Position numbers and translations under genes: made by a program. 64,000 nucleotides of DNA, taken from the IMG/VR virus record IMGVR_UViG_3300009431_000005. One strand, given 5' to 3'. Source of the DNA: an uncultured virus (IMG/VR IMGVR_UViG_3300009431_000005) (lineage: Duplodnaviria > Heunggongvirae > Uroviricota > Caudoviricetes). Each line of letters opens with the position of its first letter. Position 1 is the stretch's first letter. Positions 5,164-63,117 of the stretch are shown one piece after another. The notes beneath the pieces are model-generated. The model was given only the letters and a program-made list of their open reading frames with translations. It ran no database searches and was not told the DNA's origin.

Positions 5164-5589
5164 TTTCCCAGCCCGGCAAAGGGCCTCCGGCCGCGTGGAC
5201 CCCCCAGGGGGCCGAATCCTGGCCGGAGCGGGGGCTCCAGAGCCCCAGGATCGCCCCAGGCGGCGAGGGCGACCGACGGGGCCTCTCAGCCCAGCGGCCC
5301 GCACAGAGCCTCCCAGGCGGCCACGGCGATCGCCGGAACCCCTCCGGCAATTGCCGGAATCTGCGCACACCCGAGGGGGCTCGGTGACAGAGGGAGATGC
5401 GGGCGGGGACCTGGGATCAGGGTCCCCAGGGCAATCGCCGCAGCCCTCCTCGGCGGTAGCACCCCCGCCCGCACCCCTCGCGGTCCAATTGGCTCGCGGG
5501 ACGTGGCAATTGGCACGCTGGACGTGACCGGGGACGTGACGTGCCGCGTATCGCCTTCGTCGTCTCTAGGAGCTGCTCGATTCTGGGCA

Positions 5590-5612
5590 GCCGTTGGCAG
5601 CCTGCCACTGGC
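5590..5612. repeat. 23-bp near-palindromic intergenic element, copy 1
   Basis: GCCGTTGGCAGCCTGCCACTGGC, directly abutting the sulfotransferase stop codon. Confidence 0.85.
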
Positions 5613-43111: not shown

Positions 43112-44644
43112 TTAGGTGAGGCTGATGCGGACGTACATATCCGCGTTCACCATCTTGGAGGCGTAGCGCGAGGCCAGCCCCTTCTGGGTCAGGAAGTCCG
43201 CCGTCTGCAGACTCGGGGTCGTGTACAGGAGCTGGTACGGAGCCCACACGAACCCGGCCTCGAAGAACTGCGAACCCTTGAAGCCCATGAGCAGGTTGCC
43301 ACCCGCAGCCGCGCCCGTCTCGTTGATCAGGCGCAGGTCCTTGTAGACCCGCCACTTGTTCATCAGCGTGCCGATGAAGTGCAGGCCCTGGACGTTGCTC
43401 GGGCGCGGAGCCGAGACGAACATCCCGGCGGGCAAGGACTCGATCACGTTGCAGCCCTGCTCGTCACCGACGATCCAGTTGCCGTAGCCCTTGCGGGTGC
43501 GGAACTGGATGGAGTTGCTGGCGACGTTCAGGTTGTAGATCAGGTCCTTGAAGTGCTCCTGCTGGGAGTATTGCGGGGTCGCACCCGGCGGGTCCTTCGA
43601 GAAGGACGAGGCGACGGGAGCAACCGCCCAGATCGCGGAGATGATCTGGCGAGCGATCTCGTCGTTCATCTGCTCGGCGGCACCCGACACGAGCTGCGGC
43701 TCCAGGGAGACGCCGAACTCGGCCATGATGTCCTGCATCGCCTCCATGCTGTAGTTGACCTTCAGCGCGCGGCGCTCGGTCTCGGCGGTGGAGGTGATGA
43801 TCTGGACGTCGACCTGCGGGATCGAGGTGGAACCCTCGGAGTCCCAGCGGTACGTCGCCCAGTTCGTGGCGGAGGTGGTGAAGCCGGTACCCGTGGTGAC
43901 GGTCACCGTGATGCTCCACGCCCCGGTGGTGTAGTCGATCGAGCTGGCAGCGACGGTCGCTCCGGCGGACAGGAAGCCGCCGTTGCCGTCGTCGACGAAC
44001 TCGATGTCCGCCGCAGTACCGGAGGGCTCGTCGACCTCAGCCGTGATCCTCACCGTGCCCGGACGCACACCGCCACCGTCGTGGAAGGCGAGCGTGCCCG
44101 TGTTGGTGACGTTGGCCGCCCCGAGCGCGGGGATCGCTTCGTTGTCGATCACCTCGTTCGAGAAGTCGTACCCGGAGGACTGCTTGCCGGTGTTGGCATC
44201 GAACAGGCGCTGGCCGTGGGAGTAGCTGCCCTTGTTCGTGCCGACGATCCAGTTCCAGTACACGATCGTCGCGGAGCGGCGGGTCGTGGGCTGGACGGAG
44301 ACCAGCTCGTTGATCGGGTTCGTGGGGAACCCGGCCCGGATGATGGGGAAGAGGTAGTCGGAGAAGCCGCCGACGAGCGCGGAGCGCGTGGTCTCGTCGA
44401 TGAGCCAGCGACCCTGCGGGTCGAGCGCGCGACGGCCGCCGCACTGACGGGCGAGCCACCACTTCGCGTTCTCCAGGAGCATCGCCGTCTGGGCGCGGAG
44501 CATCTCGTCCTTGACCTCCATCTCGGAGCCCTCGGCGAAATACTCCATCCAGCCCCCTTCGGCGAGCGGGATGGTCGTGAGCTTCAGGGCGGTCTCCAGG
44601 ATGCCCTCGTAAGCCCCCGACGGGTTTAGGACCATGTTCGTCAT
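43112..44644 (-). CDS. Major capsid protein (T4 gp23-like)
   Basis: ELVSVQP, RALKVNYSMEAMQD, EIARQII, GFKGSQFFEAGFVWAPY, GLASRYA. Confidence 0.95.
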   Translation of the reverse strand: MTNMVLNPSGAYEGILETALKLTTIPLAEGGWMEYFAEGSEMEVKDEMLRAQTAMLLENAKWWLARQCGGRRALDPQGRWLIDETTRSALVGGFSDYLFPIIRAGFPTNPINELVSVQPTTRRSATIVYWNWIVGTNKGSYSHGQRLFDANTGKQSSGYDFSNEVIDNEAIPALGAANVTNTGTLAFHDGGGVRPGTVRITAEVDEPSGTAADIEFVDDGNGGFLSAGATVAASSIDYTTGAWSITVTVTTGTGFTTSATNWATYRWDSEGSTSIPQVDVQIITSTAETERRALKVNYSMEAMQDIMAEFGVSLEPQLVSGAAEQMNDEIARQIISAIWAVAPVASSFSKDPPGATPQYSQQEHFKDLIYNLNVASNSIQFRTRKGYGNWIVGDEQGCNVIESLPAGMFVSAPRPSNVQGLHFIGTLMNKWRVYKDLRLINETGAAAGGNLLMGFKGSQFFEAGFVWAPYQLLYTTPSLQTADFLTQKGLASRYASKMVNADMYVRISLT

Positions 44645-44679: not shown

Positions 44680-46545
44680 TCAGCCCTCGGCCACTGCCGT
44701 GCGTCCCTTCATGGCCTTGAGCGCCCCCTCGGCGACGGTGACCTGCCTCGGGCGTTCCTTCGGCGTGTCCTCCGTGTCGGGCGGCGGCTCAACGTCGTCG
44801 GATTCGATGACGACGCGAGACGGAAGGGTTCGGCGCGTAGCCGAAGAACCGCCCTCGGCGACGTCGGGCTCGTCGTGAGACTCCACCACCGGGCGCACGG
44901 CTGCAGGCAACAGCCGCTCCGCGATCTGCTCGACGTGCGCTGCATCGCGCCCGAGGAGCAGGATGTCGCGGAAACGCTCCAGGGAGGAGACCTCTCCGAT
45001 GACCCGATCCACCGTAGCGGTGACCGCCTCCGAGCGTTGAGACTCGGGACGGGTCGCCAGAAGTTCCTCGGCGAGTTTCAGCTTCGACGCCGTCGTCTCC
45101 AGCTTCCCCTCGACCTCCGCGAGCTGTTCGATCACCACGTCAAGCTGCCCTTCGGCAGTGCCCGTGGCCGACTCAGCGACTTCCAGCCGCTCCCGGAGGT
45201 GCCCCGCTTCCGCAATTGCGTCACGAAGCTGCTCCCGGAGACTTTCGGTGACCTGCGCGAATCCATCCACGCGGTCTTCCTCACCGGCCGCCGAAGCCTG
45301 TCGGATGGCATCGTCGATCGCAGCGTCCAGATCCCCGTCTTCGGATTCCAACAGGCCGAGGGAGTAGCGCGTCAGCATCCGCTGCAGGGAAAGGGCTTGC
45401 TCGGTGTGGAGCTTGCCTTCCCCTTGCAGGGCGCTGCCGCGTTCCGTCGCCTGTGCAATCTTCGCACGGAGGCTGGACCGCAGGAACGGGTCGATGTCAT
45501 CGAGAGGCGTCTCGACCAGTTGAGAGACCTCGACGGCGAATTCGTCCGCTTCGGTCACCGTAGCCGACGAGCCCTGCCCGTCGGTGTGCGATTCGTTGAG
45601 GATCATGATCTCCCGGAGCTGCTCTGCGGCTTGCCCCAGGTCGCCCACGTACCCCCAGTTCCTTCCGCCTTCGGCGGTGAACTTCTGCTCGTGCTGCTTG
45701 AGCTTGGCCTGCAGCGTGCGCAGGAGACCGGCGATCTCCTTCTTCCGCGCAGCGTAGGCGGACTTCGCATCCTTCCCGCGCGCCTCGTCCGTCGCCTCGC
45801 CGCCCTCCTCGTCCTCCTTGACCTGCTTCGGCACCGTGGGGAACGCGCCGGGGACGGAAGGCTTCATGACCGCGTCCCAAGTCTCGAAGACGAAGCTGTC
45901 CGGGTCGACGGTGCCGTCGTCGCCGACGGTGCCGTTGCCGCGCGAAGAGACGCCCCACCGGACGTTCTTCTTCGTGTACTCCTTGAGGATCAGGCCGTTC
46001 GGCGTGTCGAGGACCTCGGCGCGTCCCCAGACGGTGCCGTCCTCTTGGAGCTTCGCAGCGACGGTGACGATCGCGCCCTCCTTGCCGTCGGTGCGTCCGT
46101 CCTTGGGGTGTTCCAGGTGCCCGAGCATCGCGCGCTCGCCGATGTTCTTCTGGACGTAGCTGGCATCGTCCGCGATGAGCTTGTCCCAGATCGCCCGGGG
46201 GTACTTGCGCTTATTCGCGTTCGGCACGTCGCTGCGCTGGAACACGCCCTCGACGTACCAGGAGCCCTTCGGGATCTTGACCTTCGTGCCGTCGGAGAGC
46301 TGCCGCTCCTCCAGCTCCATCTCCTCGGCCGACTCGACCACGACACGCGGCCCACCCTCGGACTCCAAGAGGGTGTCGAGCGCCTCGCCCAGCATTGTTC
46401 CGTCGCCCTGTGCAAACCACACCTTCGCGTCCTGCACGACGTAGGCGACGCGCGGGTACATGACGAGGTTGTCCTCCCCGTCTGCCCACTCTTCCAGCCA
46501 GCCTTCGCAGAGCAGGCGGCGATCAGAGGCCAGGGTACCAGTCAT
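44680..46545 (-). CDS. Prohead core protease (T4 gp21-like) fused to a scaffold region
   Basis: EGVFQRSDVPNANKRKYP, LGHLEHP, LDTPNG, GVSSRGNG, WDAVMKPS; C-terminal acidic coiled coil. Confidence 0.92.
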   Translation of the reverse strand: MTGTLASDRRLLCEGWLEEWADGEDNLVMYPRVAYVVQDAKVWFAQGDGTMLGEALDTLLESEGGPRVVVESAEEMELEERQLSDGTKVKIPKGSWYVEGVFQRSDVPNANKRKYPRAIWDKLIADDASYVQKNIGERAMLGHLEHPKDGRTDGKEGAIVTVAAKLQEDGTVWGRAEVLDTPNGLILKEYTKKNVRWGVSSRGNGTVGDDGTVDPDSFVFETWDAVMKPSVPGAFPTVPKQVKEDEEGGEATDEARGKDAKSAYAARKKEIAGLLRTLQAKLKQHEQKFTAEGGRNWGYVGDLGQAAEQLREIMILNESHTDGQGSSATVTEADEFAVEVSQLVETPLDDIDPFLRSSLRAKIAQATERGSALQGEGKLHTEQALSLQRMLTRYSLGLLESEDGDLDAAIDDAIRQASAAGEEDRVDGFAQVTESLREQLRDAIAEAGHLRERLEVAESATGTAEGQLDVVIEQLAEVEGKLETTASKLKLAEELLATRPESQRSEAVTATVDRVIGEVSSLERFRDILLLGRDAAHVEQIAERLLPAAVRPVVESHDEPDVAEGGSSATRRTLPSRVVIESDDVEPPPDTEDTPKERPRQVTVAEGALKAMKGRTAVAEG

Positions 46546-46858: not shown

Positions 46859-47027
46859 CGCTCGACTCCTTCGCGCCTCGTGTTTGGCCGCAGACAGGAC
46901 ACTTCGACGGGTAGCGCCCAGGGTAGACAGGCATCGGGAACCCGCAGTCTTCGCACGGCTCCAGATGACGGCCTCGACTCAGCGCGTTGCTGAGTCCCTG
47001 AGTCAGCTTCTCGTCGAGTGCGTACAT
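46821..47027 (-). CDS. Small zinc-ribbon protein
   Basis: MYALDEK...CEDCG...CPVCG; TGATG-coupled. Confidence 0.55.
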   Translation of the reverse strand: MYALDEKLTQGLSNALSRGRHLEPCEDCGFPMPVYPGRYPSKCPVCGQTRGAKESSDAPGSDSERVPG

Positions 47028-47767
47028 CACGCCCGCCAGGATTCGAGCCTGACCAGCTCTCCGTTCCAGTAGCAGAGCGTCAGCTCGCCGAGGACATCGT
47101 CGCCACCCGTCGCATAGAAGCTCAGGTGGTTCTTCACGTCCGCGACGGCCCACTCGATCCCGAAGATCACACGCCCGCCCGGGGTCACCGCGACGTTCGC
47201 CACGTCGGCTCCGGCAATGCGCAGGTTGTGGACTGCGCCGGAGCCCCCGGCCAGACCCGTTCGGGTCTGCACGGTCGCAACGTCGTTCCCCGAGAGAGCG
47301 GTGTTGCTCGCGTCGGGGTGGCTGCCCACGAGGCGCAGGACGCCCTCGCCGTCGAGGGAGGCCACGATGTCCATCGCCGCCGTGTCCGTGTTGATCTTGG
47401 TGACGAGGTTCGTCAGCGTCAAGCTGAGCGTCGTTCCGATCACGACCTGCCGTAGCGTGGCGGTCTCGGTGACGCTGCCGTCGCTGTCGAACTCGTACGT
47501 GACGGCAGCGTTGATGCCGTCGTCGATGATGAGCTGGTCGGCGTCGTCCGGTTGGCCGGAGAAGGCCACCGAGCCGCGTTGAACGTCTCCGCCGTACGCG
47601 CTCAGGGTGAAGGCCGTCTCGCCGTGGTTCTCGATGAGCCCGAACAGCGTGTCCGCGAGAGGACCCTCCGGGCGCTTGAGAATCCCGATCAGGTCGCCCT
47701 GATCGCCGGTCTGACGACCGACCGCGAACTGGTGCGTTCGCGGGATGCTTTCGATGGTGGTCGGCAT
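47027..47767 (-). CDS. Putative head-decoration protein carrying the inserted ~110-aa module
   Basis: Central SGQPDDADQLIIDDGINAAVTYEFD...GLAGG; flanks resemble the neighbouring 142-aa protein. Confidence 0.65.
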   Translation of the reverse strand: MPTTIESIPRTHQFAVGRQTGDQGDLIGILKRPEGPLADTLFGLIENHGETAFTLSAYGGDVQRGSVAFSGQPDDADQLIIDDGINAAVTYEFDSDGSVTETATLRQVVIGTTLSLTLTNLVTKINTDTAAMDIVASLDGEGVLRLVGSHPDASNTALSGNDVATVQTRTGLAGGSGAVHNLRIAGADVANVAVTPGGRVIFGIEWAVADVKNHLSFYATGGDDVLGELTLCYWNGELVRLESWRA

Positions 47768-47813
47768 GGGGCCTCCAGTGGTTGCTCGGGTGCCAGGACA
47801 GAGAGCCGGAGGG

Positions 47814-47838
47814 GGTCGGGGAGCCGTAGCCCCCCGAC
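47814..47838 (-). terminator. Stem-loop with cUACGg tetraloop
   Basis: Minus strand GGTCGGGGGC-TACG-GCTCCCCGACC between the two putative decoration genes. Confidence 0.5.
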
Positions 47839-47861
47839 CGACCAGCTACTCGTCGAGAGGA

Positions 47862-48290
47862 TCAGTTGATGGGCGCGTTGGTACCGCTGGTCGCCGTGTC
47901 GAAGTGGACCGGCTCCAGGATGTCGTCGCCCCGGATCTGCAGGACGCCCCGACCACCGCCGAGCGCCTGCAGGCGCATCCACACGTCGATGCCGGGACGC
48001 AGGAGGATCGTGGCCTCCCTGCGGCACCGCTTCTCGACGACGACGGTAGCGACGGCGGCGAGGTTGTTCGCGGCGCTCGTGTCGGCCCACGAGCCCGGGG
48101 TCACGTTGTCGGCCCCGGCCGGAGCGACCTGCACCGTGACCGTGAGGTTGTTGGCGCTGTCGGGGTTCTCGAACAGGAGGGTCAACTTTCCGCTCCGGTT
48201 CGGCTTGGTGCGGAAGCGCAGGACCTCCGCCTCCGCCACGGGAGCGCGGAAGTCGAAGTTCCCCATCGTTGCGATTTGTGCCTGCGGCAT
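47862..48290 (-). CDS. Small beta-rich putative virion (decoration) protein
   Basis: 142 aa, AAGGAG RBS, followed by a hairpin, located upstream of the head genes. Confidence 0.65.
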   Translation of the reverse strand: MPQAQIATMGNFDFRAPVAEAEVLRFRTKPNRSGKLTLLFENPDSANNLTVTVQVAPAGADNVTPGSWADTSAANNLAAVATVVVEKRCRREATILLRPGIDVWMRLQALGGGRGVLQIRGDDILEPVHFDTATSGTNAPIN

Positions 48291-48307
48291 GTCGTTGCTC
48301 CTTGGAA

Positions 48308-49027
48308 TCAGGTAGCTGGTGTGAGGGCTCGCGTGACGTGCCCCATGAGTTCGCCCCCGTCCGAGTAAACCTCCGGGCTCGCGAGGGCGAGAGGCCCGTA
48401 GGGGTTCTGAGTTTTGAGCCAGTCGAGGAAGGCCCCGACCTCCGGTCTGTCGGCATCATCGTATCCCGACCACTGCTCGCCGAAAAGGGCAAGCCACCCG
48501 TCGGGATTGGCGACTGCGGAGTTGCCCAGCTCGTCGATGACGAGCGCGTCCACGGCGACCTCACGGGCGTCCACCACGCGAATCCTACCAATCGACCGCA
48601 TCGCTGTCGCCATCTTGGCGCTCTCGCGGCGTACGTCGACGACAGGACGGTCCTGGATCGCGGCGATCCAGTCGGTGAAGTCGAAGTCCGGCTCGAATTC
48701 GACAAGGGCCTGCAGCTCGCGGAGGTACTTCGCCCGCTGCAGGTCCGTCCGGCGGCGAGCCTGATCGCACCGTAGCGCGAAGAACTCGTCCGAGGGCGGG
48801 GCCACCTGCAGCTCGGGACGGAGGCCGTCGAACAGGAGCGTGACGGGGTCGAGAGGGGCGCTGATGACCACGAAGCCGGTGCCCATACCCCAGGGCAGCG
48901 TCCACCAATCGGCCAGGGCGAGGAGCGTGTTCTGCTCGTTCCACACGGCGAAGTCCAGCGGTCGCGGGTCCACTCGGTCGGGGTCCCGCAGCTCCGCGCC
49001 GCGCATGAAGAGGTCGGTGAGTTCCAT
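48308..49027 (-). CDS. Hypothetical protein translationally coupled to the giant polyvalent protein
   Basis: Start reassigned to MELTDLF at the TGATG overlap. Confidence 0.65.
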   Translation of the reverse strand: MELTDLFMRGAELRDPDRVDPRPLDFAVWNEQNTLLALADWWTLPWGMGTGFVVISAPLDPVTLLFDGLRPELQVAPPSDEFFALRCDQARRRTDLQRAKYLRELQALVEFEPDFDFTDWIAAIQDRPVVDVRRESAKMATAMRSIGRIRVVDAREVAVDALVIDELGNSAVANPDGWLALFGEQWSGYDDADRPEVGAFLDWLKTQNPYGPLALASPEVYSDGGELMGHVTRALTPAT

Positions 49028-52000
49028 CAGGCGACGAAGACGTCCTCGGGTTTCGCTCCGTTGAAGAAGGTCCATCCTAGCGACTTGGCGATCTTGATGC
49101 ACTGGTCGCGGTTCGACTTCGACCCACAGTTGACGCGGACCAGATACTGCTGGAGGTCAATGTCGTGGCGGATGTTGACCTGCAACGCAGACGATGAACC
49201 GCAGCCGCCGGTCCCGTTATGTGCTCCGAGCTTCACCCACTGCTCCGGCGTCGTGTAGCGTTCGGTCTTCGTGTTCCCGAACGAGTCCCCCGTACCGACG
49301 ATGTACACGTCGAGCCGCAGGGCGAGGCTGAGGTCGAAGTAGACCATCTGCTCACCTGACGTGAAGCCCTTCCGGAAGCAACAGAAAAGACCCTGCCCGC
49401 CGCCGACGTTCATGTCCGCTCCGGGAGACGCACCCATCTTCGTCACGCCGTAGAACGCCTTCTGCGCGTTCGCGAGCAGTGCGCCGTTGCTCGACATCTG
49501 CTGCATCCACGTCACCACGTCAGACGCGAGGTGGTGCGCGACGTGACAGCTCGAACCCATGTGCTCGATGAGTTTCTCGCGCGTCCAACCGATGCGAGTG
49601 TGTCGGTTCCAACCGGCACCGCGAGTGTAGTGGCCGTCGACCTCGTCGGACGAGGCCATCTTGCTGACACCCGCCACCGTCGTACCGAGCTTCTTCGCCA
49701 CGATCTTCTTCATCGCAGCGATCGCGCCCTTCGTGTCGCCGTTCCGGTACTGATCCATCGCGGCCTTGTACCCAACCTCGTTCACGGTCGTGCTGTCGGC
49801 CTGCGGCTTGACGGCACCGTTCCCCTGCAGGTGCTGGACCTGACGGCTCCAGTACAGCGCCTCGGAGTCGTCCGGCCCTGCGGTCGACATCCCGATGCCC
49901 GTCGCTTCCTGGAACAGCTTGAGCAGGTGCGCGACGGTAGCGGCGGAGGGTTCGCCGGGGATGATCGCCCACGCCTGACCCTTCAGCGACTCGACGCCTT
50001 CGGAGAGTCCGGACACTCCAGCACCGCCGGGCGGGTTGAAGAAGATCCGCGCCTTCGTCAGCGGGTCCTCGATCTGGAACTGCGACTGGTAGGCCGAGTT
50101 CATGACCGGCTTGTTGAGGTTGGTGACGTGGACCTCCTGGCCGCTCGGGTTCGCGGTCGGCCAGAAAGCGCCCTGCTTCTTCATCCGCACCTTGAACTTC
50201 GGCTTCGCAACGACGGGGCCTTCGTCCTCCTCGGGCGGGTCTTCCCACAGGAAGTCGGCGAGCTGCGGCGAGTGCTGCCCGAGCAGGTCCTCCTTGTTCT
50301 CGACCCAGTAGTTGATGATGCCGACGTACTGCAGGTACTGCTCGGCCATCGCGTACACCGCCTCGTTCGGCTCGCCGGTCGGGCCGTACGTTCCGCTCGG
50401 GTCAGCGGCGTCCTTGGTGAGCTGCTCCAGCTCGGGGGCGATCGCCTGCATCGCGGCGATCGTGTTCATGTTGATGTTGAGGTCGTTCTGGCCGTGCAGG
50501 TGGTAGTTGACCGACTTGATGGCCTGGAAGATTTTTTCCCAGTAGTTGTTCGCCTGATCGACCTTCAAGCGGTGCGGCCCGCCGAAGTTGTCATCGACGG
50601 CTTCCAAGCCCTGACTCGTGACTAGCTTCTTCGTCGCGGTCCGTCCGGCAGGAGCGGCGACGCGGAAGTGGATCATGGTCGCGGGCACCTTGACGCCGGG
50701 CTTCTCCTCGTACATCACCCGGCGGCACATGACCTCCTGACCCTCGACGGCGTCGCGGTCGATCTTGAGCGCCTTCCCTTGCCACCCGGCCTGCACCGCG
50801 TCGGCGATGGTCTGCTCTTCGCGCGCAGCGAAGCCCATCTCGGCAGGCGAGGACTGGAATGCGGCGGAGGGCGGAGCAATCGTCTCGGCACCGACGGCGG
50901 GCCACTTGAAGGTCGAGCGCAGACCCTTGAGGACCTTCGTCCAGTCCTTCTCGTAGCCATCCCTCCGCTTCTTCAGCTTGTTGAGGACGGCGGTCCGCTT
51001 CGTGTCGGCCGTCCCACGCGCCTCGAACACGGGCGTGAGGATCGCCGTCAACGTCTGGTCGGGCAGCGCGACCACCTTCTTGATGGTCTTGAGCATTGCG
51101 CCCCACGCCTTCTCGGGGATCTCGACCTGACCGTCACCCCAGCGGATGAGGAGCGTCTTAGCGTAGCCCGCGCCGAAGTTGCCGGGCGCGTGCCAGTTCG
51201 GGTCGAGGCTCTCGGGCTTCCCCATCAGCAGGAACTTGAACGCCTGCCCCCGGTCGACGGCGACGATCTTCCCGTTGGCCTGCTTGAGCCAGTTCCCGAC
51301 GTGACCGTCGTGGTCGCCCATGAACATATCGGCCGCGTGCTGCGAGAGCAGCTCGGCCATGTTGTCGTCGTCCAGCTCGGTCGGGTCGCCGGGCGGGCTG
51401 GTCGCGTCGTCCAGTAGTGGCTGGAAGCTGACGTGCCGCGTCGAGGTGCCGACGGCAACGTCCATCACGCCGACGGGGATGTTGTTGCCCTTCAGCTCCT
51501 GCGAGAGCCGGTACGCCGCGCCGTCGGTGTCCGCGCGCCACGCTTCGCCGGGAGGCCCCCACTTCGCAAACCACTTCTTCCCGCCAGGACCGATGAGGAT
51601 CGCGTTCGGCTTGGAGCCGCCACCCTGCTTCTTGCCCGTGTCGGAGAACAGGATCGGCTGCGGGTTGTTGACGTACTGCGTGTAGATCGGCGACTCGAAG
51701 GCCGAGGGGATGACCTTCTTCGGCGGAGCAGCGGTCGGCGTCTGGAAGGGGGCGGCGGCAGGCGGAGCAGCCGTAGCAGTACCGGCGGTCGCCTTGACCG
51801 GCGCGCTCGGCTTGTTCTTCTTGTGCGTCTGCTGCATCCGCGCCTTGAGCGAGGCGACGATCGCGTCGTGCTGCGCCTGACTGCACGCGCCAGCGACGAA
51901 CATCGAAGCCACGTCGCGGAGCAGCGGCTTCGTGATGACCGCGTACGCGGGGACTCCGGCGGCCTTGCACCACTTGGTCTTGAAGGTCGCCATCGTGGTT

Positions 52001-55000
52001 CCCTTCGGCAGCTCCCCGGTGGTGTACACGTCCTCGATCAGCGCGTTGACGTCCGGCTCGGGGTGCTGGAACCAAGCGTCCAGGCTCGCGTTCGCAACGG
52101 TCTGGTCTTGCGAGATGTGCGCACCCTCCAGACCTTCTTCGGTGCATTCGAGCGCGACGATCGAGCCGCCCGGGGTGTAGCAGAGCAGGAAGTGGTACGC
52201 CTGCCCGTCCTCACCGAGCCACGAGACGTACCCGGCGGCGATGTACGGCGTGCCTGCGGCCGTCTCGAAGGACTCGCCGAAGTTCGGTCCACTCGGCCGG
52301 TCGCGCGCAGCGTCGAACCCGGTGGGCAGCGCAGCCTCGCCGTTCGAGACCTTGTACTTCAGCTCGCCGACCATCTTGTCGGTGACCGGGAACGGGCACT
52401 TGAAGTACAGCGTCTTCCAGACGTGCCCCTCGAAGGTGTCGGCAGGGATCGTCGGCTTGAACGAGGTCTGAACCGGGGGCTGGTAGTCGGAGATGTCCGG
52501 TGCCTCGGGCTCGTCGAACGCGGGCTCCGGATCTTGGATCTTGGCCGTCACCGAGTGCGCCACTTGCTCAGGAGCAACGGCCGCGACGCCCGGGATGATC
52601 TCCTCGTCGGTGTCGTCCGGCCCGGTGACCGTAGCGTGGAACGAGTCGGCCTCGACCTCAGCGAGATGCGGGAGGCCGTTCTGCTGCATCCACGCCCACG
52701 CGGAGAGCAGCGCCTTCTGCTGCCACTTCGTCTCCGACTTCGGGATCAGGTCGGACCACCAATCGTCCTCCTGGAAGAGAGGGGCTCCGGAGGAGTCGGT
52801 GCGCAGGGGGCGGATGACGATGGACTCGGACTCCTCGGGCTGCACCTTCTTCTTCGGATTGCCGCCCGTGGCGTAGGCAATGAACATCCGCGTGATTGAG
52901 GTCGTCGCACGGAAGTCGCCCAGGAAGGCCACGGGCTTGCAGGTGATCCCCGTCTCCTCCCACACCTCGCGCACGGCGGTCTTGAGAACCGCCTCGCCCT
53001 TCTTCACCGAACCCTTCGGCAGATTGAGCTTGTAGCCGCCGAACTGCCCGAGGGGACGGTACATCAGCACGGCGGGCATCTGACTCTGACCGCCGATGCC
53101 CTTGGTGAAGGTGCCCGTGTCGGGCGGGAAGATCACCACGACCCCTGCGGAGATGTGGTGGTCCTTCGGGATCTCAGCGAAGGGCGGCTGCTTGAGCGGC
53201 GTCGGTTCGTCCCACCCGGCAGGTCCGTCGCTCGGGATGTCGCAGCCGGACTGCGTGTGCGTGAGCGTCACGACCTCGGAGTCCGCCTTCCCGATGTCGA
53301 CCCACTCCTTGCCGGGGTCGAACATCGTGAAGGACTCGTAGTGCGTCTTCCACGAAGCCTTCAGGTCGTCGCGCGAGACCGTCAGGTACGTGTCCTCGGT
53401 GCCCTGCTGCAAGAGCACGGCGTGCGGGTCCGACTCGTTCGAGGGGATCGTCCAACCGACGATGACGTACACGGTGGCCCCGGCGGTGTGGACCACGGGC
53501 GCGTTGACGTGGTGCGGCTTGCGCTTCGGCGCAGGCACGTACACGAGGCTCGCCTTCTCCGCGAGGACCTTCGCCTCCCGACTCAGCGTGTAGTTGAGGT
53601 CGGGGTACTTGACCTGAGCCTCACTGCCGGGCTTCGGCAGGAGAGCGTCGACGACGGACTGGTCCGTGTGCAGATAGACCTTGTACTTCTTGTGCCCGCC
53701 CGACGTGGAGACGTAGTTGACGTTCCCCTTCTCGGTGACGATCACGTACACCGCGCCCGTGTCGGAGAAGCCGTACCCGATGACCGTGCGCGTGCCGCCG
53801 TTCGGGTGCTGGCGCACCTGTCCGAGAGAGAAGCTGAAGGCACCCTCCGATGCGACGGCGGGCGTCCACCCCTTCTTCTCCAGGAAGTCGAACGCCTGCT
53901 GCGTGCCGGACATCTCGAAGTTGCCCTGCTCGGGATCCGGCTCGTCCGCTTCGTGCGAGGACTCGGGCTCCTCTTCGGGCGGGTCGTACGAGGACTCGAC
54001 CAGCGCACCGACGAACTGCTCCGTCTCGGAGTAGAACTCCCAGTAGCCCAGCTCCGCGTCGCCCGCTGCCATCGTCTTCTGCGTCGACACGACGGCGAAG
54101 ACCACGTCCTCCTCGAAGGTGAAGTTGAGGGTGATAGCCTGCGACTGCGCAGCGCCCACGAGGAAGATGTCCCCGACGGGCACGCCGATCTTCTCGCCCA
54201 GCACGAGGCCCCAGTTGCTCGGCAGCTCGTCGAGTCGCTTCAGCGGGTCGCCGACCTCGACGTGCTTGTAGATCGAGAGCGGTCCAGGAACGATCGCCTC
54301 GACGAGCGTCCCGTTTCCGTCGACGGCCTCGCGTCCGAGCAGACCCGGGGACGAGGACGAGCCGCCCACCATCGTCAGCTCTTGCGCGACGTAGTGGCCG
54401 TTGTCCGTACCGAGGACGAGGAACTTCGAGCCACTGAACTGGATCACGTCGTTCGGGTTGAACCCGAAGGGCTGTGCAAGCGGCTGTGCGGCGATACCCG
54501 GCACTTCCGGCGGGCTGTCCTTGCCCTGGTCCGGCGCACCGCCCTCGACGTTCTGCGCAGCGTCAGAGGCCCACACGGGCGTCAGGTCGCCGGACGCGAT
54601 CTCCTGCGCGGCAACCGTGTCGCTGAGCGGAGCGACGTTGCCGTTCGACCACCGGAGGCAGACGTAGCCGTCGCCGTCCGTGCTCTTCAGAGCCGCGACG
54701 ACGGTGACCTTCCCCTGCGGCGACTTGCGGAGCAGATCCTCCCCGAGCTTCGCGTCGGCAAAGTGCTTCTTCTTGAACGCACTCGCGTACTTGGTCTCGC
54801 CCAGGGGGATCGCCTCGAACCCGTCCAGGGGGAGGCCGGTCGTTTGCGAGAGCCCGACGATGACATCGAGCACGTCCTCCTCCGCACCCGGGAGGATGTG
54901 ATCGACGTTGGGCATGTCGGGCGCGGGTGCTTCGGGCTGCTCAGGGACGGCCTTGTCGGTCTTCGGGTACAGCTTCCCGTCCTGCACCGCCAGCTCCGTC

Positions 55001-56940
55001 GCAACGTCCGTCGTCACGAGCCACGGACCGTCGGCGGCCTCCTGTAGCGGACCCTCGAAAGCGATCCACGTCTGCAGGGGTTCCGTCCCGTGCGGCTTAT
55101 AGGCGTACGCGGAGTGCAGCCGCACGGCCTTCTGGGTCACGGACCCGTCGTGCTGCCACACCGAGCCCTTCTCGACGTGCCCGCCGAAGCCCTCCGAGAC
55201 GCAGGCGTGGAAGAAAGCCGTCTCGGTGAGCGGCACCGCCTTGAGCGTAGCCTGCTCCTCCGGATCGAGGTTCTTGATGATGTGCTGGTACAGCGACTCG
55301 GGCATCCCGAGCGCGCCCGCCGCCACCATCTCCTGCTCCAAGTCGATGTCGGTCTTCGTCGACTTGGGGGCCTTCGGAGCAACCGCGCCGTACACCGAGC
55401 CCGGCATGTCCTTGTGCGCCTGCAGGACCTGGATCTGACCGCTCTTCAGCTCGTCGGCGAAGATGTGGTCGGACCACACCGCCATGCTCCCGTCCGGGTA
55501 GCCGAGGACGACCTGCACCGCGCTCGCGGACGTTTGGAATGCGCCGAGGACGTGCGCCTTCGCCTTCCCGCCCACCTGACAGAGCGTGTAGATCCCGAGC
55601 GGCGTCCCCGTCGACTTCGCCGCCTTGCCGGACTTCGTCATGTCCAGCTTCACCGGCTTGAGTTTGTCGACGGTCTCGTGGTCGTAGTGGTGGCCCTCTT
55701 TCTGGAGGAAGCTGAAGACGGCCGTCTTCAGCGACTTGTCCGAGAGCGTCTGCTGGAGCTTGATGCCCGCAGCGGGCATCGGGTTCTCCTTGGCGAACTC
55801 CTCGAAGGCCGGGCGGACGTCAGCGTCGACGGGAATCGCGTCGAGGATGTGCTGCCAGTTGCCCTTCTTCCAGTCGGCGTTGTAGACGTGGAACAGGGAG
55901 CCCGCGAGCTTGTTCTCTGCCGTCCAGCGACGGGCCGCACCGAGGAGCTTCTGCACGACGGCCGCGCTGAGCTTCTTCCCGTAGTAGGCACTCATCATGA
56001 GTGCCTCCATCTGCTCGGGGAGCTGCGCAAACGCCTTCGTCTCGGAGGGGTCCTTCCACCGACTGCCGTGCGGGTGGAAGTACGAGATGTAGATGTTGAT
56101 CGCGTCGTGGTACCCGCTCCAGACGCCCGGCGCGTGGTTCTGTGCGGGCGGCTTCTTGCTCGACGTGTTGAGCGTGACGAGCAGCTCGGGCTTTTCGACC
56201 GCGAGGATCGCGTAGGCGACGAAGGCAGGCCAGACCATCTTCGTCGACACGGGGATGTTCCCGCCGTCGAACACCTGCTTCTTCATCCCCGCCTCGGTCA
56301 GCGAGGTCGACATCTCGTCGAGATCGACCTGCGCGGCGAGCCGGTACTCAGGATCGGCGCACTCCAGGATCAGCGCCGCTTCGCGGAAGGGGTCGGGGCC
56401 GTGGACCCGACGCTGCAGCGCGTTCCCCACAGCGCCCGCGCTGTCCCCGAAGGCGCGGCGGAAGTCAAGGTTCCATCCCGTAGCCCGGTGGTACTCCTCG
56501 ATGAAGCGGGCCGCCTTGCGGGGGTTGAGGTCGTACTCGAACCGCCACGCGCCAAGGGAGAAAGCTCCGTAGATTTCGTCCGGGGTCGCGCGCAGGAGGG
56601 CGACGGTGGAGTCCTGGAACTCGTAGCCCTCAGCCACGGCGTCGGCGTGGAGCTTGGCGGCCCAGGTGTGTCCGGCAGCGGCACCGTGCAGGTGCCACGA
56701 GCGCACGAGGGGTGAGTCCTGCTCGGAGCGGAGAAGCTGATACTCGGCCTCGACGAGCCGGTGGTTGACCTCGAAGAAACGGTGCAGCCTGCCGATCTGG
56801 TCGACGGTGACGCGCCCGGAAGCCAGCGACTCGGCGAGGCCCACACCCGTCACATCGTCCAGTGGCTGGCGGCGGTGAAGCTCCAGCGCACGGCCCGCTG
56901 CACGCTGCACAGAGAGCGGGACCTCGTAGGTCAGGTTCAT
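49027..56940 (-). CDS. Giant polyvalent protein: head-associated N-domain, SH3-like repeats, Nudix hydrolase, HipA/PI3K-like kinase, possible ART-like C-domain
   Basis: Nudix box PKGSVKKGEAVLKTAVREVWEETG; kinase motifs GGGSKP...WFAK...DHDGHVGNW...AVDRGQAF. Confidence 0.85.
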   Translation of the reverse strand: MNLTYEVPLSVQRAAGRALELHRRQPLDDVTGVGLAESLASGRVTVDQIGRLHRFFEVNHRLVEAEYQLLRSEQDSPLVRSWHLHGAAAGHTWAAKLHADAVAEGYEFQDSTVALLRATPDEIYGAFSLGAWRFEYDLNPRKAARFIEEYHRATGWNLDFRRAFGDSAGAVGNALQRRVHGPDPFREAALILECADPEYRLAAQVDLDEMSTSLTEAGMKKQVFDGGNIPVSTKMVWPAFVAYAILAVEKPELLVTLNTSSKKPPAQNHAPGVWSGYHDAINIYISYFHPHGSRWKDPSETKAFAQLPEQMEALMMSAYYGKKLSAAVVQKLLGAARRWTAENKLAGSLFHVYNADWKKGNWQHILDAIPVDADVRPAFEEFAKENPMPAAGIKLQQTLSDKSLKTAVFSFLQKEGHHYDHETVDKLKPVKLDMTKSGKAAKSTGTPLGIYTLCQVGGKAKAHVLGAFQTSASAVQVVLGYPDGSMAVWSDHIFADELKSGQIQVLQAHKDMPGSVYGAVAPKAPKSTKTDIDLEQEMVAAGALGMPESLYQHIIKNLDPEEQATLKAVPLTETAFFHACVSEGFGGHVEKGSVWQHDGSVTQKAVRLHSAYAYKPHGTEPLQTWIAFEGPLQEAADGPWLVTTDVATELAVQDGKLYPKTDKAVPEQPEAPAPDMPNVDHILPGAEEDVLDVIVGLSQTTGLPLDGFEAIPLGETKYASAFKKKHFADAKLGEDLLRKSPQGKVTVVAALKSTDGDGYVCLRWSNGNVAPLSDTVAAQEIASGDLTPVWASDAAQNVEGGAPDQGKDSPPEVPGIAAQPLAQPFGFNPNDVIQFSGSKFLVLGTDNGHYVAQELTMVGGSSSSPGLLGREAVDGNGTLVEAIVPGPLSIYKHVEVGDPLKRLDELPSNWGLVLGEKIGVPVGDIFLVGAAQSQAITLNFTFEEDVVFAVVSTQKTMAAGDAELGYWEFYSETEQFVGALVESSYDPPEEEPESSHEADEPDPEQGNFEMSGTQQAFDFLEKKGWTPAVASEGAFSFSLGQVRQHPNGGTRTVIGYGFSDTGAVYVIVTEKGNVNYVSTSGGHKKYKVYLHTDQSVVDALLPKPGSEAQVKYPDLNYTLSREAKVLAEKASLVYVPAPKRKPHHVNAPVVHTAGATVYVIVGWTIPSNESDPHAVLLQQGTEDTYLTVSRDDLKASWKTHYESFTMFDPGKEWVDIGKADSEVVTLTHTQSGCDIPSDGPAGWDEPTPLKQPPFAEIPKDHHISAGVVVIFPPDTGTFTKGIGGQSQMPAVLMYRPLGQFGGYKLNLPKGSVKKGEAVLKTAVREVWEETGITCKPVAFLGDFRATTSITRMFIAYATGGNPKKKVQPEESESIVIRPLRTDSSGAPLFQEDDWWSDLIPKSETKWQQKALLSAWAWMQQNGLPHLAEVEADSFHATVTGPDDTDEEIIPGVAAVAPEQVAHSVTAKIQDPEPAFDEPEAPDISDYQPPVQTSFKPTIPADTFEGHVWKTLYFKCPFPVTDKMVGELKYKVSNGEAALPTGFDAARDRPSGPNFGESFETAAGTPYIAAGYVSWLGEDGQAYHFLLCYTPGGSIVALECTEEGLEGAHISQDQTVANASLDAWFQHPEPDVNALIEDVYTTGELPKGTTMATFKTKWCKAAGVPAYAVITKPLLRDVASMFVAGACSQAQHDAIVASLKARMQQTHKKNKPSAPVKATAGTATAAPPAAAPFQTPTAAPPKKVIPSAFESPIYTQYVNNPQPILFSDTGKKQGGGSKPNAILIGPGGKKWFAKWGPPGEAWRADTDGAAYRLSQELKGNNIPVGVMDVAVGTSTRHVSFQPLLDDATSPPGDPTELDDDNMAELLSQHAADMFMGDHDGHVGNWLKQANGKIVAVDRGQAFKFLLMGKPESLDPNWHAPGNFGAGYAKTLLIRWGDGQVEIPEKAWGAMLKTIKKVVALPDQTLTAILTPVFEARGTADTKRTAVLNKLKKRRDGYEKDWTKVLKGLRSTFKWPAVGAETIAPPSAAFQSSPAEMGFAAREEQTIADAVQAGWQGKALKIDRDAVEGQEVMCRRVMYEEKPGVKVPATMIHFRVAAPAGRTATKKLVTSQGLEAVDDNFGGPHRLKVDQANNYWEKIFQAIKSVNYHLHGQNDLNINMNTIAAMQAIAPELEQLTKDAADPSGTYGPTGEPNEAVYAMAEQYLQYVGIINYWVENKEDLLGQHSPQLADFLWEDPPEEDEGPVVAKPKFKVRMKKQGAFWPTANPSGQEVHVTNLNKPVMNSAYQSQFQIEDPLTKARIFFNPPGGAGVSGLSEGVESLKGQAWAIIPGEPSAATVAHLLKLFQEATGIGMSTAGPDDSEALYWSRQVQHLQGNGAVKPQADSTTVNEVGYKAAMDQYRNGDTKGAIAAMKKIVAKKLGTTVAGVSKMASSDEVDGHYTRGAGWNRHTRIGWTREKLIEHMGSSCHVAHHLASDVVTWMQQMSSNGALLANAQKAFYGVTKMGASPGADMNVGGGQGLFCCFRKGFTSGEQMVYFDLSLALRLDVYIVGTGDSFGNTKTERYTTPEQWVKLGAHNGTGGCGSSSALQVNIRHDIDLQQYLVRVNCGSKSNRDQCIKIAKSLGWTFFNGAKPEDVFVA

Positions 56941-56993: not shown

Positions 56994-57023
56994 AGGTGGA
57001 TTATCGCCGATCCGCCACGCGGA

Positions 57024-57428
57024 TCAATGAACTGGACGAGCCTCGCCGGAGAGCGCACTCGTACCGAAGAACCCCCACGCCTTTTCGTAGCGGGCGAGGG
57101 CTTGACGCGCCTCCGCGTACGCCTCCGCAGGGAGCCCCACCCCGCATCCGTTCCCCGCCTCGATGGCGCAAGGCGGCGGCTGTTCGAGCGTGCCGCCCGG
57201 ACAGATCAGCTCCTTGAACGCCCGCATGACGGGCTTCGAGTCGTCGATCTGCTGCATACGGTCGGCGGGTAGCACGCGCACGGCCGCCCCGTCGTCCTCG
57301 ACCCCCGCCTCGGCCAGCTTCGCAGACACGCGCTTCGCTTCGGCCCAGCCCAGCTCGGCGTGCGTCTCCAGCTCACCGACCTGACCCTCCAGCTCCGTGA
57401 TTCGTGCCCGCAGTCCCTCTTCGCTCAT
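57024..57428 (-). CDS. Hypothetical protein (N-terminal coiled coil)
   Basis: 134-aa ORF with GAGGA RBS. Confidence 0.6.
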   Translation of the reverse strand: MSEEGLRARITELEGQVGELETHAELGWAEAKRVSAKLAEAGVEDDGAAVRVLPADRMQQIDDSKPVMRAFKELICPGGTLEQPPPCAIEAGNGCGVGLPAEAYAEARQALARYEKAWGFFGTSALSGEARPVH

Positions 57429-57438
57429 CGTTCGGTCC

Positions 57439-58659
57439 TCAAGTCTTGAGTGTGGTGCCCGGGGTCAGCTCCTCCCAGTCCGCTCCGACGCCGTGAACCT
57501 GCTCCGCCCAACGGCGGCGCGTGACGTCGCAGTACCGGGGGTCCAGCTCTGCCGCGTAGCATACCCGCTGCAATTGCTCCGCGACCGAAAGAGTCGTGCC
57601 GGAGCCGACGAATGGATCGAGCACGATCTGCCGCGCGTCGGTCGCGTCGAGCATCAGCGCCTCGATCAACTCGACCGGCTTCTGCGTCGGGTGCATGTCG
57701 TTGGCGGTCGGCTTGGGGAACTCCAGCACGTTCGTCCGCCGGGTGTCCGGCACGTACCACGTCGCCCCTTCCTTCGCGCCGTGCAGGATCGGCTCGTGCA
57801 TGTGGTGATAGTCGCCACGCCCGAGGGTGAATCGGTCCTTCACCCAAAAGAGCCAGCGCATCGCCACGCCGCCTGAAGCCTCCCACGTCCGCTCCAGCGC
57901 AGGCATCTCCTGCGAGGACATGAAGACGTAGCACAGCCCCGTCGTCTTCCGGAGGATCAGCTCGCACAGGTCCTTGAGGAACGTGCTCCACTCCTCCGGC
58001 TTCTGGTCGTCACCTTCGATGGTCTCACCGCTCGCGGACTCGTACGCGACGTTGTACGGCGGGTCGGTGATACACGCGGTGGCCTTCTTCTTGACGAGGG
58101 AGCTGAGCCCCCTGAAGTCACCGCAGAGCAGTCGGTGTCGCCCGAGGGTATAGACCACTCCAGGCTCCGACTTCGGCGGCCCCGAGGACTCGCCGACAGC
58201 GTTCTCCGCTCGCGGGGCCGCAAGGGCGTCGAGCCGGGCTGCCTGCGTCCGCAGGTCCTGCGCCAGCGACTCGAAGCCCATCGCGGTCGGGTCCGGTAGC
58301 GCAGCCTCGACAGAGTCGAGCACGGGGAGCGCCGCACGGACATCCCAAGTACCTCGGATCGCGGGGTTATTCATGGACAGGTTGGCCGACATCTCGGCCG
58401 CATCGTCCATGTGGACGACGACGCAGTCCGCGTGCGTCACCCCGGCGGCCATCAGCACGTCTCGCCGCTGGTGGCCGGAGATCACCCGGGGAGGATCGCG
58501 CTTCACGTTGACGACGATCATCTCCAGGAGCCCCAGATCGTCGAGAGACTCACGTAGCCCGCGCATCGCAGGCTCGCTGATCTCCCGGGGGTTGTAGGCT
58601 GCGGCCTCCAGGTCAGCGAGCCTGAACTTCTTGGTCTCGATCTGGGTCTGAACAGCCAT
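57439..58659 (-). CDS. ParB-like domain fused to N4/N6 DNA methyltransferase (intact motifs)
   Basis: YNPREI...ISGHQR (ParB/Srx); TDPPYN, HPTQKPVEL, LDPFVGSGTT. Confidence 0.9.
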   Translation of the reverse strand: MAVQTQIETKKFRLADLEAAAYNPREISEPAMRGLRESLDDLGLLEMIVVNVKRDPPRVISGHQRRDVLMAAGVTHADCVVVHMDDAAEMSANLSMNNPAIRGTWDVRAALPVLDSVEAALPDPTAMGFESLAQDLRTQAARLDALAAPRAENAVGESSGPPKSEPGVVYTLGRHRLLCGDFRGLSSLVKKKATACITDPPYNVAYESASGETIEGDDQKPEEWSTFLKDLCELILRKTTGLCYVFMSSQEMPALERTWEASGGVAMRWLFWVKDRFTLGRGDYHHMHEPILHGAKEGATWYVPDTRRTNVLEFPKPTANDMHPTQKPVELIEALMLDATDARQIVLDPFVGSGTTLSVAEQLQRVCYAAELDPRYCDVTRRRWAEQVHGVGADWEELTPGTTLKT

Positions 58660-58774
58660 GCGCATCTGAAGGGAAGGCGAGCGGGTCACAAGGACCCGCT
58701 CACCGGAACCGATTTGGAAGCGGGCGCGGTCGCACCCCGTGTGCCGCCAGTCTATCGCACGGTCAAGGGCAACG

Positions 58775-61119: not shown

Positions 61120-61479
61120 CTACGAAGGTGATGTAGTGGGGTGCGAGGATGACCGCAGCCGGGCCTTCAGCGAACGGCGCACAGGCTGCTCCCCCGTCCC
61201 CGTCAATCTCTTGAGTCGCGCCAGGAGCAGGTCCCGCTGGCGCTCAATCTCGGCGTACTCTCCAAGGATCTGTGCCCCCGCCCCTGCGTTCAAGTAGCAG
61301 GCCGATCCGTGCCGGTTGACGTGCTGGCAGAAAGGGCAGGGCGTGCCGCGATACCGCCACCCGAGGGCGACGATCTCCCGAACCGAGTCCAGGACAACGG
61401 CGAGTTCGGTGCGCTCCCTCTCCGTCTGCTGGAGCTGAAGCTGGAGCGATTCGATCTGCTCGGCCTGTCGCCTTGTCAT
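61120..61479 (-). CDS. Hypothetical coiled-coil protein with CxxC...H...C motif
   Basis: MTRRQAEQ... at ATGA overlap; CPFCQHVNRHGSAC. Confidence 0.55.
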   Translation of the reverse strand: MTRRQAEQIESLQLQLQQTERERTELAVVLDSVREIVALGWRYRGTPCPFCQHVNRHGSACYLNAGAGAQILGEYAEIERQRDLLLARLKRLTGTGEQPVRRSLKARLRSSSHPTTSPS

Positions 61480-62778: not shown

Positions 62779-63117
62779 TCAATGCACCGCCATTCGCTCC
62801 TCGCTCACCTCCGGTTCCCAGCCCTCGGCGACGGCCTTCTTGAAGCACTCCCACCCCCCGAGGAGGAAGTCGCGGCAGGCGTGTGGTCGCCGCTCGTAGA
62901 TCGTGCAACGCTTCGTCGTTCGGTCGAGCGCGACGCACACGTCGTCGACGCGCTTCATCCGGCCAACGTAGCAGTCGGCCGGGTCGGGCTCCGCCATCGC
63001 AGACGGGTCGGGCAGGATGCGCAGGTCGTCCTCGGTCAGTGGGACGTCCCACCCCTGACAGCACAACGCGCAGTCTTCGCAGCTCTCCTTCCGATCGTTG
63101 ATCTTGTAGACCGGCAT
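62779..63117 (-). CDS. YkgJ-family (CxxCxxCC) cysteine cluster protein
   Basis: CEDCALCC...CVALD...CTIYERRPHACRDF; TGATG-coupled. Confidence 0.85.
   Translation of the reverse strand: MPVYKINDRKESCEDCALCCQGWDVPLTEDDLRILPDPSAMAEPDPADCYVGRMKRVDDVCVALDRTTKRCTIYERRPHACRDFLLGGWECFKKAVAEGWEPEVSEERMAVH

Follow-up and report, generated by a model that had tools for sequence, protein, structure and literature searches.

Few head-packaged effectors of bacteriophages have been studied, the usual examples being T4 Alt, P1 Dar and the virion RNA polymerase (vRNAP) of N4, and since such proteins act before phage gene expression, they set the first move in the conflict between phage and host. T4 Alt is a single-domain ADP-ribosyltransferase (ART) of the R-S-E type, about 680 residues long, and is processed at an LxE site by gp21, the T4 prohead protease cleaving at (L/I)xE. 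The DarT fold, for its part, is known mainly from a bacterial anti-phage toxin. Polyvalent, probably virion-borne effectors are already known as a kind: phage polyvalent proteins and MuF fusions have been predicted to be packaged in the head and injected (PMC5512222, in a text which also counts T4 Alt as a head-packaged ADP-ribosyltransferase), and the text of another study makes the same packaging prediction for proteins in which a Nudix domain is joined to MuF, portal or head protease (PMC9503650). Here, we describe a gene found in a stretch of 64,000 nucleotides from an uncultured virus of the Caudoviricetes (IMG/VR record IMGVR_UViG_3300009431_000005), this whole stretch being called the window. 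The gene is located at 49027..56940 on the minus strand and encodes a protein of 2637 amino acids (aa), P0001. We propose, with a probability of about 55%, that P0001 is a giant polyvalent protein of a myovirus with a T4-type head, which would be incorporated into the prohead, trimmed by a gp21-type protease, ejected with the DNA and active at once in the host.

In the text of the survey by Iyer, Burroughs, Anand, de Souza and Aravind (2017, PMC5512222), phage polyvalent proteins are very long, carry several unrelated conflict-type enzyme domains and are encoded among the late or head genes of tailed phages, with packaging and injection predicted, and P0001 resembles them in all these respects. 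Such proteins have at least two unrelated effector-type domains in a late or packaging gene context; P0001 has three (Nudix, kinase and a predicted ART fold) and a conserved place beside protease and capsid genes, so that the term "polyvalent", given to it in an earlier note written from the sequence of this DNA alone, fits. However, none of the anchor or processing domains inventoried in the survey text, such as MuF, portal or MPTase, was detected in it. P0001 resembles T4 Alt in that a predicted ART-fold enzyme occurs in a phage whose protease is of the gp21 type and whose capsid is of the gp23 type, and in having a candidate LxE site; it differs from Alt in that its predicted ART fold is DarT-like and forms the last part of a multi-enzyme protein of 2637 aa, whose packaging is a prediction.

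The gene itself is well defined. The frame starts with ATG, is uninterrupted down to a stop codon at 49027-49029 and has codon-position GC contents (0.64/0.44/0.90, GC3 being 0.90) which resemble those of real genes nearby, confirming the open reading frame (ORF) that the earlier note had delimited. No match to the gene was found by megablast among 50,697 phage records, and a word-indexed search retrieved 43 relatives of 1508-3654 aa sharing 27-50% identity, nearly all with a Nudix domain, among which 42 are full-length giants (at least 2097 aa). A profile search led to 45 family proteins, and an exhaustive HMMER search with aa 1-520 against 1.84 billion representatives to 81 matches at E<=0.001. 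The family which P0001 founds comprises about 60-100 giants and is known from metagenomes only. Coverage by these relatives divides the protein into three zones, i.e., a conserved one (aa 1-520), a poorly conserved one (aa 521-960) and a second conserved one (aa 961-2637), and the three-enzyme architecture is conserved under selection. One 18-kb viral contig (L007) carries the C-terminal 898 aa of P0001 at 100% identity, implying that the same phage has been assembled at least twice.

The Nudix hydrolase domain (aa ~1255-1420, 52681..53178, minus strand) is recognized by Pfam NUDIX (PF00293, aa 1291-1370, E 1.2e-10, 42 bits for a cut-off of 21.1), by three PHROG Nudix families and by profile matches in the PDB. 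Its Nudix box, GSVKKGEAVLKTAVREVWEETGI (aa 1310-1332), lies at 52945-53013, where the earlier note had placed one (~52945-53020), and every position fits the consensus GX5EX7REUXEEXGU. When searched with a strict regular expression, 42 of the 57 family proteins have the box, and the non-matching ones include variant boxes. Searches of PDB sequences with phmmer and with the family profile returned Nudix only, among the matches listed. Regarding the substrate, the PDB profile matches spread over Ap4A hydrolase, MutT/Nudix, Dcp2 and ADP-sugar pyrophosphatase, and the NCBIfam equivalog models all score far under their cut-offs (best 27.5 bits vs 200), and the sequence does not single out a substrate class.

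The second enzyme is an atypical protein-kinase-like domain of the PI4K II / CtkA / HipA type (aa ~1749-2009, 50914..51696, minus strand). An AlphaFold2 model of aa 1740-2637, built on an alignment of 26 sequences, has a mean predicted local distance difference test score (pLDDT) of 85.3, and Foldseek returned for its kinase part 115 PDB matches at E<=0.001, every listed row being a kinase, with Helicobacter pylori CtkA (3akl_C, E 1e-4, TMt 0.54), PI3K and actin-fragmin kinase in the lead. Models were also compared, independently of Foldseek, with 48,161 representative chains using VIA-align. For model residues 10-270, 46 of these chains reached Z>=8, led by PI4K II-alpha (4pla_A, Z 14.5, root-mean-square deviation (rmsd) 3.9, 236 residues aligned) and including CtkA (3akj_A, Z 14.0), Fam20C (Z 12.5), MavQ (Z 12.3), HipA (4pu3_A, Z 11.0) and CotH (Z 10.9). 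The kinase motifs span aa ~1764-2001 (~50940-51650) and comprise K1793, GDHDGHVGN at 1875-1883 and DRG at 1896-1898; all of the 26 aligned sequences have K1793, D1878 and D1896, and at least 90% of them have N1883. Their spacing, an Asp, an Asn five residues on and an Asp thirteen residues after, corresponds to a kinase catalytic loop followed by a metal-binding loop and suggests that K1793 is the ATP-binding Lys, D1878 and N1883 belong to the catalytic loop and D1896 is the metal-binding Asp of DxG. The HipA/PI3K-like kinase announced by the earlier note is hence right at the level of the fold, and P0001 shares with PI4K II-alpha, CtkA and HipA not only this fold but also the DxxxxN loop, the DxG Asp thirteen residues later and the invariant Lys. 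In contrast to these enzymes, P0001 itself has no Pfam kinase match: in its kinase region no Pfam kinase model, including HipA_C (PF07804) and PI3_PI4_kinase (PF00454), was found at E<=1. A relative, the metagenomic protein P0063 (5996 aa), has three copies of the kinase-like domain (aa 1380-1533, 2098-2389 and 5477-5622), the first of which matches HipA_C (E 4.3e-11, 43.3 bits, above the cut-off of 30.5) and, below the cut-off of 27.1, PI3_PI4_kinase (E 2e-5, 25.1 bits). As the Pfam models match this copy and not P0001, the sequence link between the P0001 kinase and Pfam is transitive and runs through P0063. With HipA_C, PI3_PI4_kinase, ADPrib_exo_Tox and NUDIX in its precomputed Pfam annotation, P0063 is itself an even larger polyvalent protein than P0001.

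The third enzyme-like domain closes the protein. The C-terminal domain (aa 2380-2637, 49030..49803, minus strand) was modeled with AlphaFold2 from 47 sequences (mean pLDDT 91.0, predicted template modeling score (pTM) 0.88) and is predicted to consist of four helices followed by a DarT-like ART core (aa ~2451-2637, 49030-49590, minus strand). Foldseek ranks 1-10 are all ART-fold enzymes, with E-values from 2e-3 to 0.5, i.e., seven DarT (best 7omv, E 2e-3, probability 1.00, TMt 0.47), two SopF and CteC. In the VIA-align comparison, ranks 1-9 all belong to the ART superfamily and only four chains reached Z>=8, all of them DarT: Escherichia coli DarT1 (8baq_A, Z 11.1, rmsd 3.2, 155 residues aligned), Thermus DarT (7omv, Z 10.5), Thermosipho DarTG (7omu, Z 10.4) and Mycobacterium tuberculosis DarT (7yk3_C, Z 10.0). 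Then come SopF (6.9), the tRNA 2'-phosphotransferase Tpt1 (6.6) and CopC/OspC3 (5.8) and, lower, CteC and the pertussis-, LT- and CARDS-type toxins. Because the DarT rows stand apart and cover the whole core (model residues ~72-258), a DarT-like ADP-ribosyltransferase fold is the best reading of this model, and the ART call which the earlier note had made tentatively is borne out as far as the fold is concerned. The sequence strings which that note quoted for the C-terminal domain, HVAHH, GALL and GASPGADMNVGGGQGLF, are indeed present, at aa 2466-2519. By sequence, phmmer of the C-terminal domain alone found nothing in the PDB at E<=10, and ESM Atlas returned for aa 2386-2637 unnamed clusters only (score 0.91, low shared-feature counts).

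Among the structures compared, DarT (DarTG) comes closest to aa ~2451-2637 (Z 10.0-11.1, with 148-162 residues aligned at an rmsd of 3.1-3.9), but it differs from the P0001 domain in several ways. Sequence identity is just 9-10%. Unlike a DarTG toxin-antitoxin gene, the P0001 domain is phage-borne and fused as the C-terminus of a giant protein, and no macrodomain (DarG) or NADAR antitoxin partner was found among the eight neighboring window proteins scanned with Pfam. DarT catalysis requires R51 and E160, as described for the Thermus enzyme in the text of PMC9967889, whereas the P0001 family has no invariant Glu. The residues which are invariant in the 47-sequence alignment are G2443, G2498, D2509, G2513, G2514, D2544, D2552 and G2555, and at least 90% of the sequences also share R2449, H2469, S2505, D2536, R2542 and D2595. 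As a stand-in for the catalytic Glu, D2544 (in RLDVYIV) was considered, although the proportional position of DarT E160 would fall near D2595 (in RHDID); neither is claimed. Since the family lacks an invariant Glu, ART activity itself is tentative. One rival explanation is that the C-terminal fold no longer transfers ADP-ribose and serves as a binding module or for other chemistry, which would leave P0001 as a Nudix and kinase effector. It is in line with the invariant polar residues being D2509, D2544 and D2552, and with the weak Foldseek E-values; however, this domain is the best conserved part of P0001, with many invariant polar residues, and its nearest structural neighbors are active ARTs. 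We consider a loss of transferase activity somewhat unlikely; it would in any case cut across our proposal and both of the rival views on packaging discussed below.

At the other end of P0001, a module of 390-520 aa is specific to the family. The earlier note had compared the N-terminal domain to a small domain recurrent in phage head proteins, a resemblance that did not hold: no Pfam or PHROG match was found on the N-terminus of P0001 or of 17 relatives, tblastn of aa 1-216 against the 50,697 phage records gave nothing at E<=1, and the HMMER matches are family-specific. ESM Atlas returned for aa 1-520 unnamed clusters only (score 0.77, low shared-feature counts). The 81 HMMER matches include giants of 2185-3800 aa with the module at their own N-terminus and shorter proteins of 113-1196 aa covering part of it, notably proteins of 359-374 aa spanning aa ~4-385 and others of ~180-220 aa spanning aa ~3-190 (e.g., P0098, P0103, P0106-P0109). 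Nineteen matches were scanned with Pfam, and the 18 with the N-terminal module have no family besides NUDIX. Some of the short forms may be fragments from contig ends; their extents suggest two subdomains, N1 (aa 1-190, 56371..56940), conserved in the family and specific to it, and N2 (aa ~236-390), the conserved N2 and its tail extending over aa 236-520 (55381..56235), all on the minus strand. One further match concerns aa 389-445 alone (~55606-55776), which align with 12 repeated stretches (E 6.4e-8) of P0112, a 2998-aa cadherin/Ig-repeat protein rich in cadherin, He_PIG and PA14 domains; this segment is probably a linker-like or Ig-like element.

Between N1 and N2, the family alignment delineates a linker of variable length (aa 196-235, 56236..56355, minus strand) with two conserved short motifs, DLxE(L/M) and LxE(S/A). 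The second contains L214-T-E216|A (56293-56301), kept in 35 of the 42 homologues with aligned columns and the sole well-kept one of the 23 [LI]xE sites of P0001. In the aligned linker window, [LIVM]xE[ASG] is present in 73 of 92 homologues and [LI]xE in 82 of 92, the latter count also taking in the DLxE motif. From the LxE-A/S sites to which the earlier note had drawn attention, what survives is this conserved LTEA, the total count being at chance. We infer that L214-T-E216|A is a candidate prohead-protease site: a T4-type processed head-core protein is expected to have a conserved (L/I)xE site and to come from a phage that encodes a gp21-type protease, as is the case here, and cleavage is predicted.

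The rest of P0001 is less readily assigned. The poorly conserved region (aa 521-960, 54061..55380) aligns with just 7-25 of the 43 relatives; it is followed by a conserved region, beta-rich by eye (aa 961-1250, 53191..54060), and, past the Nudix domain, by another conserved region (aa 1500-1700, 51841..52443), both defined by coverage by relatives and the latter also by alignment. Between the kinase and the C-terminal domain, the AlphaFold2 model contains two conserved middle domains, alpha/beta plus helical and beta-rich (aa ~2039-2379, 49804..50826; all these regions are on the minus strand), for which VIA-align gave no specific fold match but only generic helical-repeat rows (model residues 385-480). 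An internal repeat array was considered and rejected, self-BLAST showing none and hhalign of six candidate beta segments giving at most 11% probability, which is not significant. The structures predicted by AlphaFold2 cover the C-terminal part of the protein, i.e., aa 1740-2637 and aa 2380-2637.

Links to head proteins come from the C-terminal half. P0044, a protein of 1569 aa with Pfam Phage_Mu_F at aa 169-283 (E 8.1e-16), aligns over its aa 742-1530 with aa 1756-2596 of P0001 (24% identity, E 3e-40), which implies that the stretch running from the kinase through both middle domains to the ART-like domain travels as one block of ~880 aa, also on a MuF protein. Among the proteins scanned, P0044 is the sole carrier of MuF (PF04233), which is absent from P0001 and from 17 relatives. 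Similarly, the P0001 kinase domain matches the middle of gp54 of mycobacteriophage McProf, encoded between the portal and scaffold genes and annotated as a "minor capsid and ADP-ribosyltransferase fusion", where the kinase-like domain is found between a VG15/MuF-like N-terminus (VG15) and a C-terminal ART (ADPrib_exo_Tox). Foldseek matches of the kinase in BFVD are large phage proteins; the named ones comprise an ADP-ribosyltransferase (1340 aa, E 2.9e-11), an HK97 portal (1201 aa) and proteins with a PI3/4-kinase, a Nudix or a head morphogenesis domain, the last of 1020 aa. P0001 shares domains with these MuF (SPP1 gp7) fusions P0044 and McProf gp54, but unlike P0044 and McProf gp54 it has the family-specific N-terminus, the Nudix domain and about 1200 further residues, and its ART is DarT-like by the model whereas that of McProf gp54 is of the ADPrib_exo_Tox type. 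The model TIGR03843 gave a weak match on P0044 (E 0.0029) and none in the viral record described below.

The viral record whose first 64 kb form the window is 126,207 bp long and 91% complete according to CheckV, and its called genes are all on the minus strand. Downstream of the P0001 gene, three small ORFs (246, 142 and 264 aa, 47027..49102) without family match precede the gene of a T4 gp21-type prohead serine protease of 621 aa (44680..46545; Pfam Peptidase_S77 E 1.4e-18, phrog_207 E 2.5e-36) and that of a T4 gp23-like major capsid protein (43112..44644; phrog_138 E 4.3e-40), which is at most 30% identical to the capsid protein of any cultured phage and by tblastn matches capsid genes of T4-like and other myophages. 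Adaptor, sheath, tube and baseplate genes follow. In the other direction, upstream, are a 134-aa ORF, two ParB-DNA-methyltransferase fusions (57439-58941 and 61476-62732; phrog_498 E 3.8e-89 and 4.3e-44), a 775-aa ORF and a zeta-toxin/AAA_33-like protein (63117-63956) identified by family match. Further along the record, the portal (97771-99567) and large terminase (99606-101717) genes are located ~50-51 kb from protease and capsid, with mostly unknown genes on one strand between them, an unusual split of the head module. The position "directly upstream of the head module" claimed by the earlier note therefore applies to its protease-capsid half, three small ORFs intervening, and not to portal and terminase, which lie ~41 kb upstream of the P0001 gene. 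The order zeta-like gene, giant, ~245-aa ORF, S77 protease, gp23-like capsid and adaptor is kept in two other loci, L009 and L011, whose giants are respectively 41% and 27% identical to P0001; in L009, ParB-methylases also stand between the zeta-like gene and the giant.

Several features of this neighborhood are worth recording. The 264-aa ORF (48308-49102, minus strand) was called from a GTG and overlaps the last 76 bases of the P0001 gene; its true start is probably further downstream. In the protease, the S77 domain occupies just aa ~83-340, and many of the 19 [LI]xE sites of the protein fall within its last ~280 aa, a stretch that may represent a fused scaffold or propeptide. A promoter and terminator scan of 44-62 kb gave counts at chance level: the sole sigma-70-like site, TTGATC-16-GATAAT (57000-57027, minus strand), is 60 bases upstream of the P0001 ATG, while shuffled sequence yields a mean of 0.8 such sites. 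Outside the window, the record contains a second giant ORF of 2234 aa (66396-73100, minus strand) with its own Nudix domain (phrog_1198 E 7.9e-25, aa 1097-1222). The idea that it is a paralogue of P0001 was dropped, the best BLASTP match outside the Nudix box having an E-value of 0.099; between portal and protease, the phage hence encodes two giants which both bear a Nudix domain and are unrelated to each other.

According to the reading that we favor, the N-terminal module (aa 1-390) would target P0001 to the assembling head core, the protein would be taken into the prohead, and the gp21-type protease would cut the conserved LxE site of the linker (aa 214-216), as it does for packaged T4 proteins. 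P0001 would exit the head together with the DNA, and its three enzymes would be at work in the host ahead of all phage gene expression. The substrates of the Nudix domain would be nucleoside-diphosphate-X compounds, whether ADP-ribose, NAD-derived signals or the 5' ends of RNA, and those of the kinase would be proteins or lipids of the host. Host nucleic acid or protein would be ADP-ribosylated by the DarT-like domain, whose modeled fold points to nucleic acid at least as much as to protein. This scenario follows the ones proposed, in the texts of the respective studies, for polyvalent proteins and MuF fusions (PMC5512222) and for head-fused Nudix domains (PMC9503650), and we infer the link to the head from synteny, the MuF-borne C-terminal block, the kinase in MuF, portal and ART fusions, the gp21-type protease and the conserved LxE site. 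Several points weigh against it. The phage is uncultured and known from sequence alone, and no MuF, portal or other known head-anchor domain was found in P0001 with Pfam. As the N-terminal module matches nothing outside its own family, a head-targeting role is a guess, and [LI]xE is not enriched in P0001 (23 vs 17.6 expected from composition). Portal and terminase are distant, and gene adjacency alone is weak evidence since all genes of the record share one strand. Finally, the Foldseek E-values for the ART match are weak, none being at E<=0.001, and with no invariant Glu among the 47 aligned domains, the ART domain may be inactive or use other chemistry.

Two rival explanations dispense with part of this scheme. 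P0001 could be a cytoplasmic, non-packaged enzyme acting on phage or host nucleic acid during infection, for example in a DNA modification that would combine DarT-like transfer of ADP-ribose to bases, Nudix trimming and a phosphotransfer step. The text of PMC9967889 reports that DarT enzymes modify DNA bases, the two ParB-DNA-methyltransferase fusions and the zeta-toxin-like kinase gene are nearby, and P0001 has no known head anchor, all of which speaks for this view. It seems to us quite improbable, though, as synteny with protease and capsid genes persists down to 27% identity, a MuF head protein also carries the C-terminal block, and the kinase domain is found again in portal, MuF and minor-capsid fusions. 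The other possibility is that P0001 has a mainly structural role inside the head or in ejection (inner body, ejectosome), with a size that would serve DNA packaging or delivery and with enzyme domains that would be secondary or decayed. A single-copy conserved gene beside head genes, the length of the protein, its long stretches without enzymatic signature and its variable aa 521-960 would all suit such a function, and giant virion proteins known to be ejected, such as N4 vRNAP, offer a precedent. Nevertheless, the conservation of the Nudix box and of the catalytic residues of the kinase throughout the family argues for selection on catalysis, and the models, which cover aa 1740-2637, provide no fold evidence for a channel or a scaffold; this role too is hard to credit.

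A more specific version of the head-delivery proposal can also be formulated. The pairing of a NAD+-using fold with a Nudix domain might, speculatively, reflect that both work on ADP-ribose chemistry. A head-carried assembly of DarT-type ART, Nudix and PI4K/HipA-type kinase would ADP-ribosylate host DNA or RNA and arrest the cell before phage gene expression, while the Nudix domain would process ADP-ribose adducts or remove NAD-derived alarm molecules. We regard this precise sequence of events as unlikely.

With respect to the main text of the polyvalent-protein survey (PMC5512222), two aspects are new, i.e., the DarT-type ART fold in such a phage protein and the recurrence of a PI4K/CtkA/HipA-type kinase across MuF, portal and ART fusions from unrelated phages, although supplementary inventories could list both domains under other names. 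Indeed, the kinase of that survey is described as a truncated Ser/Thr/Tyr-type one, and its main text does not contain the words HipA or PI3K. The N-terminal module specific to the P0001 family is new as well. The main texts of the literature searched contained no description of this family and mentioned neither a HipA/PI4K-type kinase nor a DarT-type ART as part of a phage head fusion. If the injection of a DarT-type enzyme proves true, a phage would be turning a bacterial anti-phage weapon round. Moreover, should packaging and activity hold, P0001 would provide a test case of virion-delivered ADP-ribosylation of nucleic acid or protein, a new head-targeting module and a candidate processing signal for T4-type heads beyond the T4 group.

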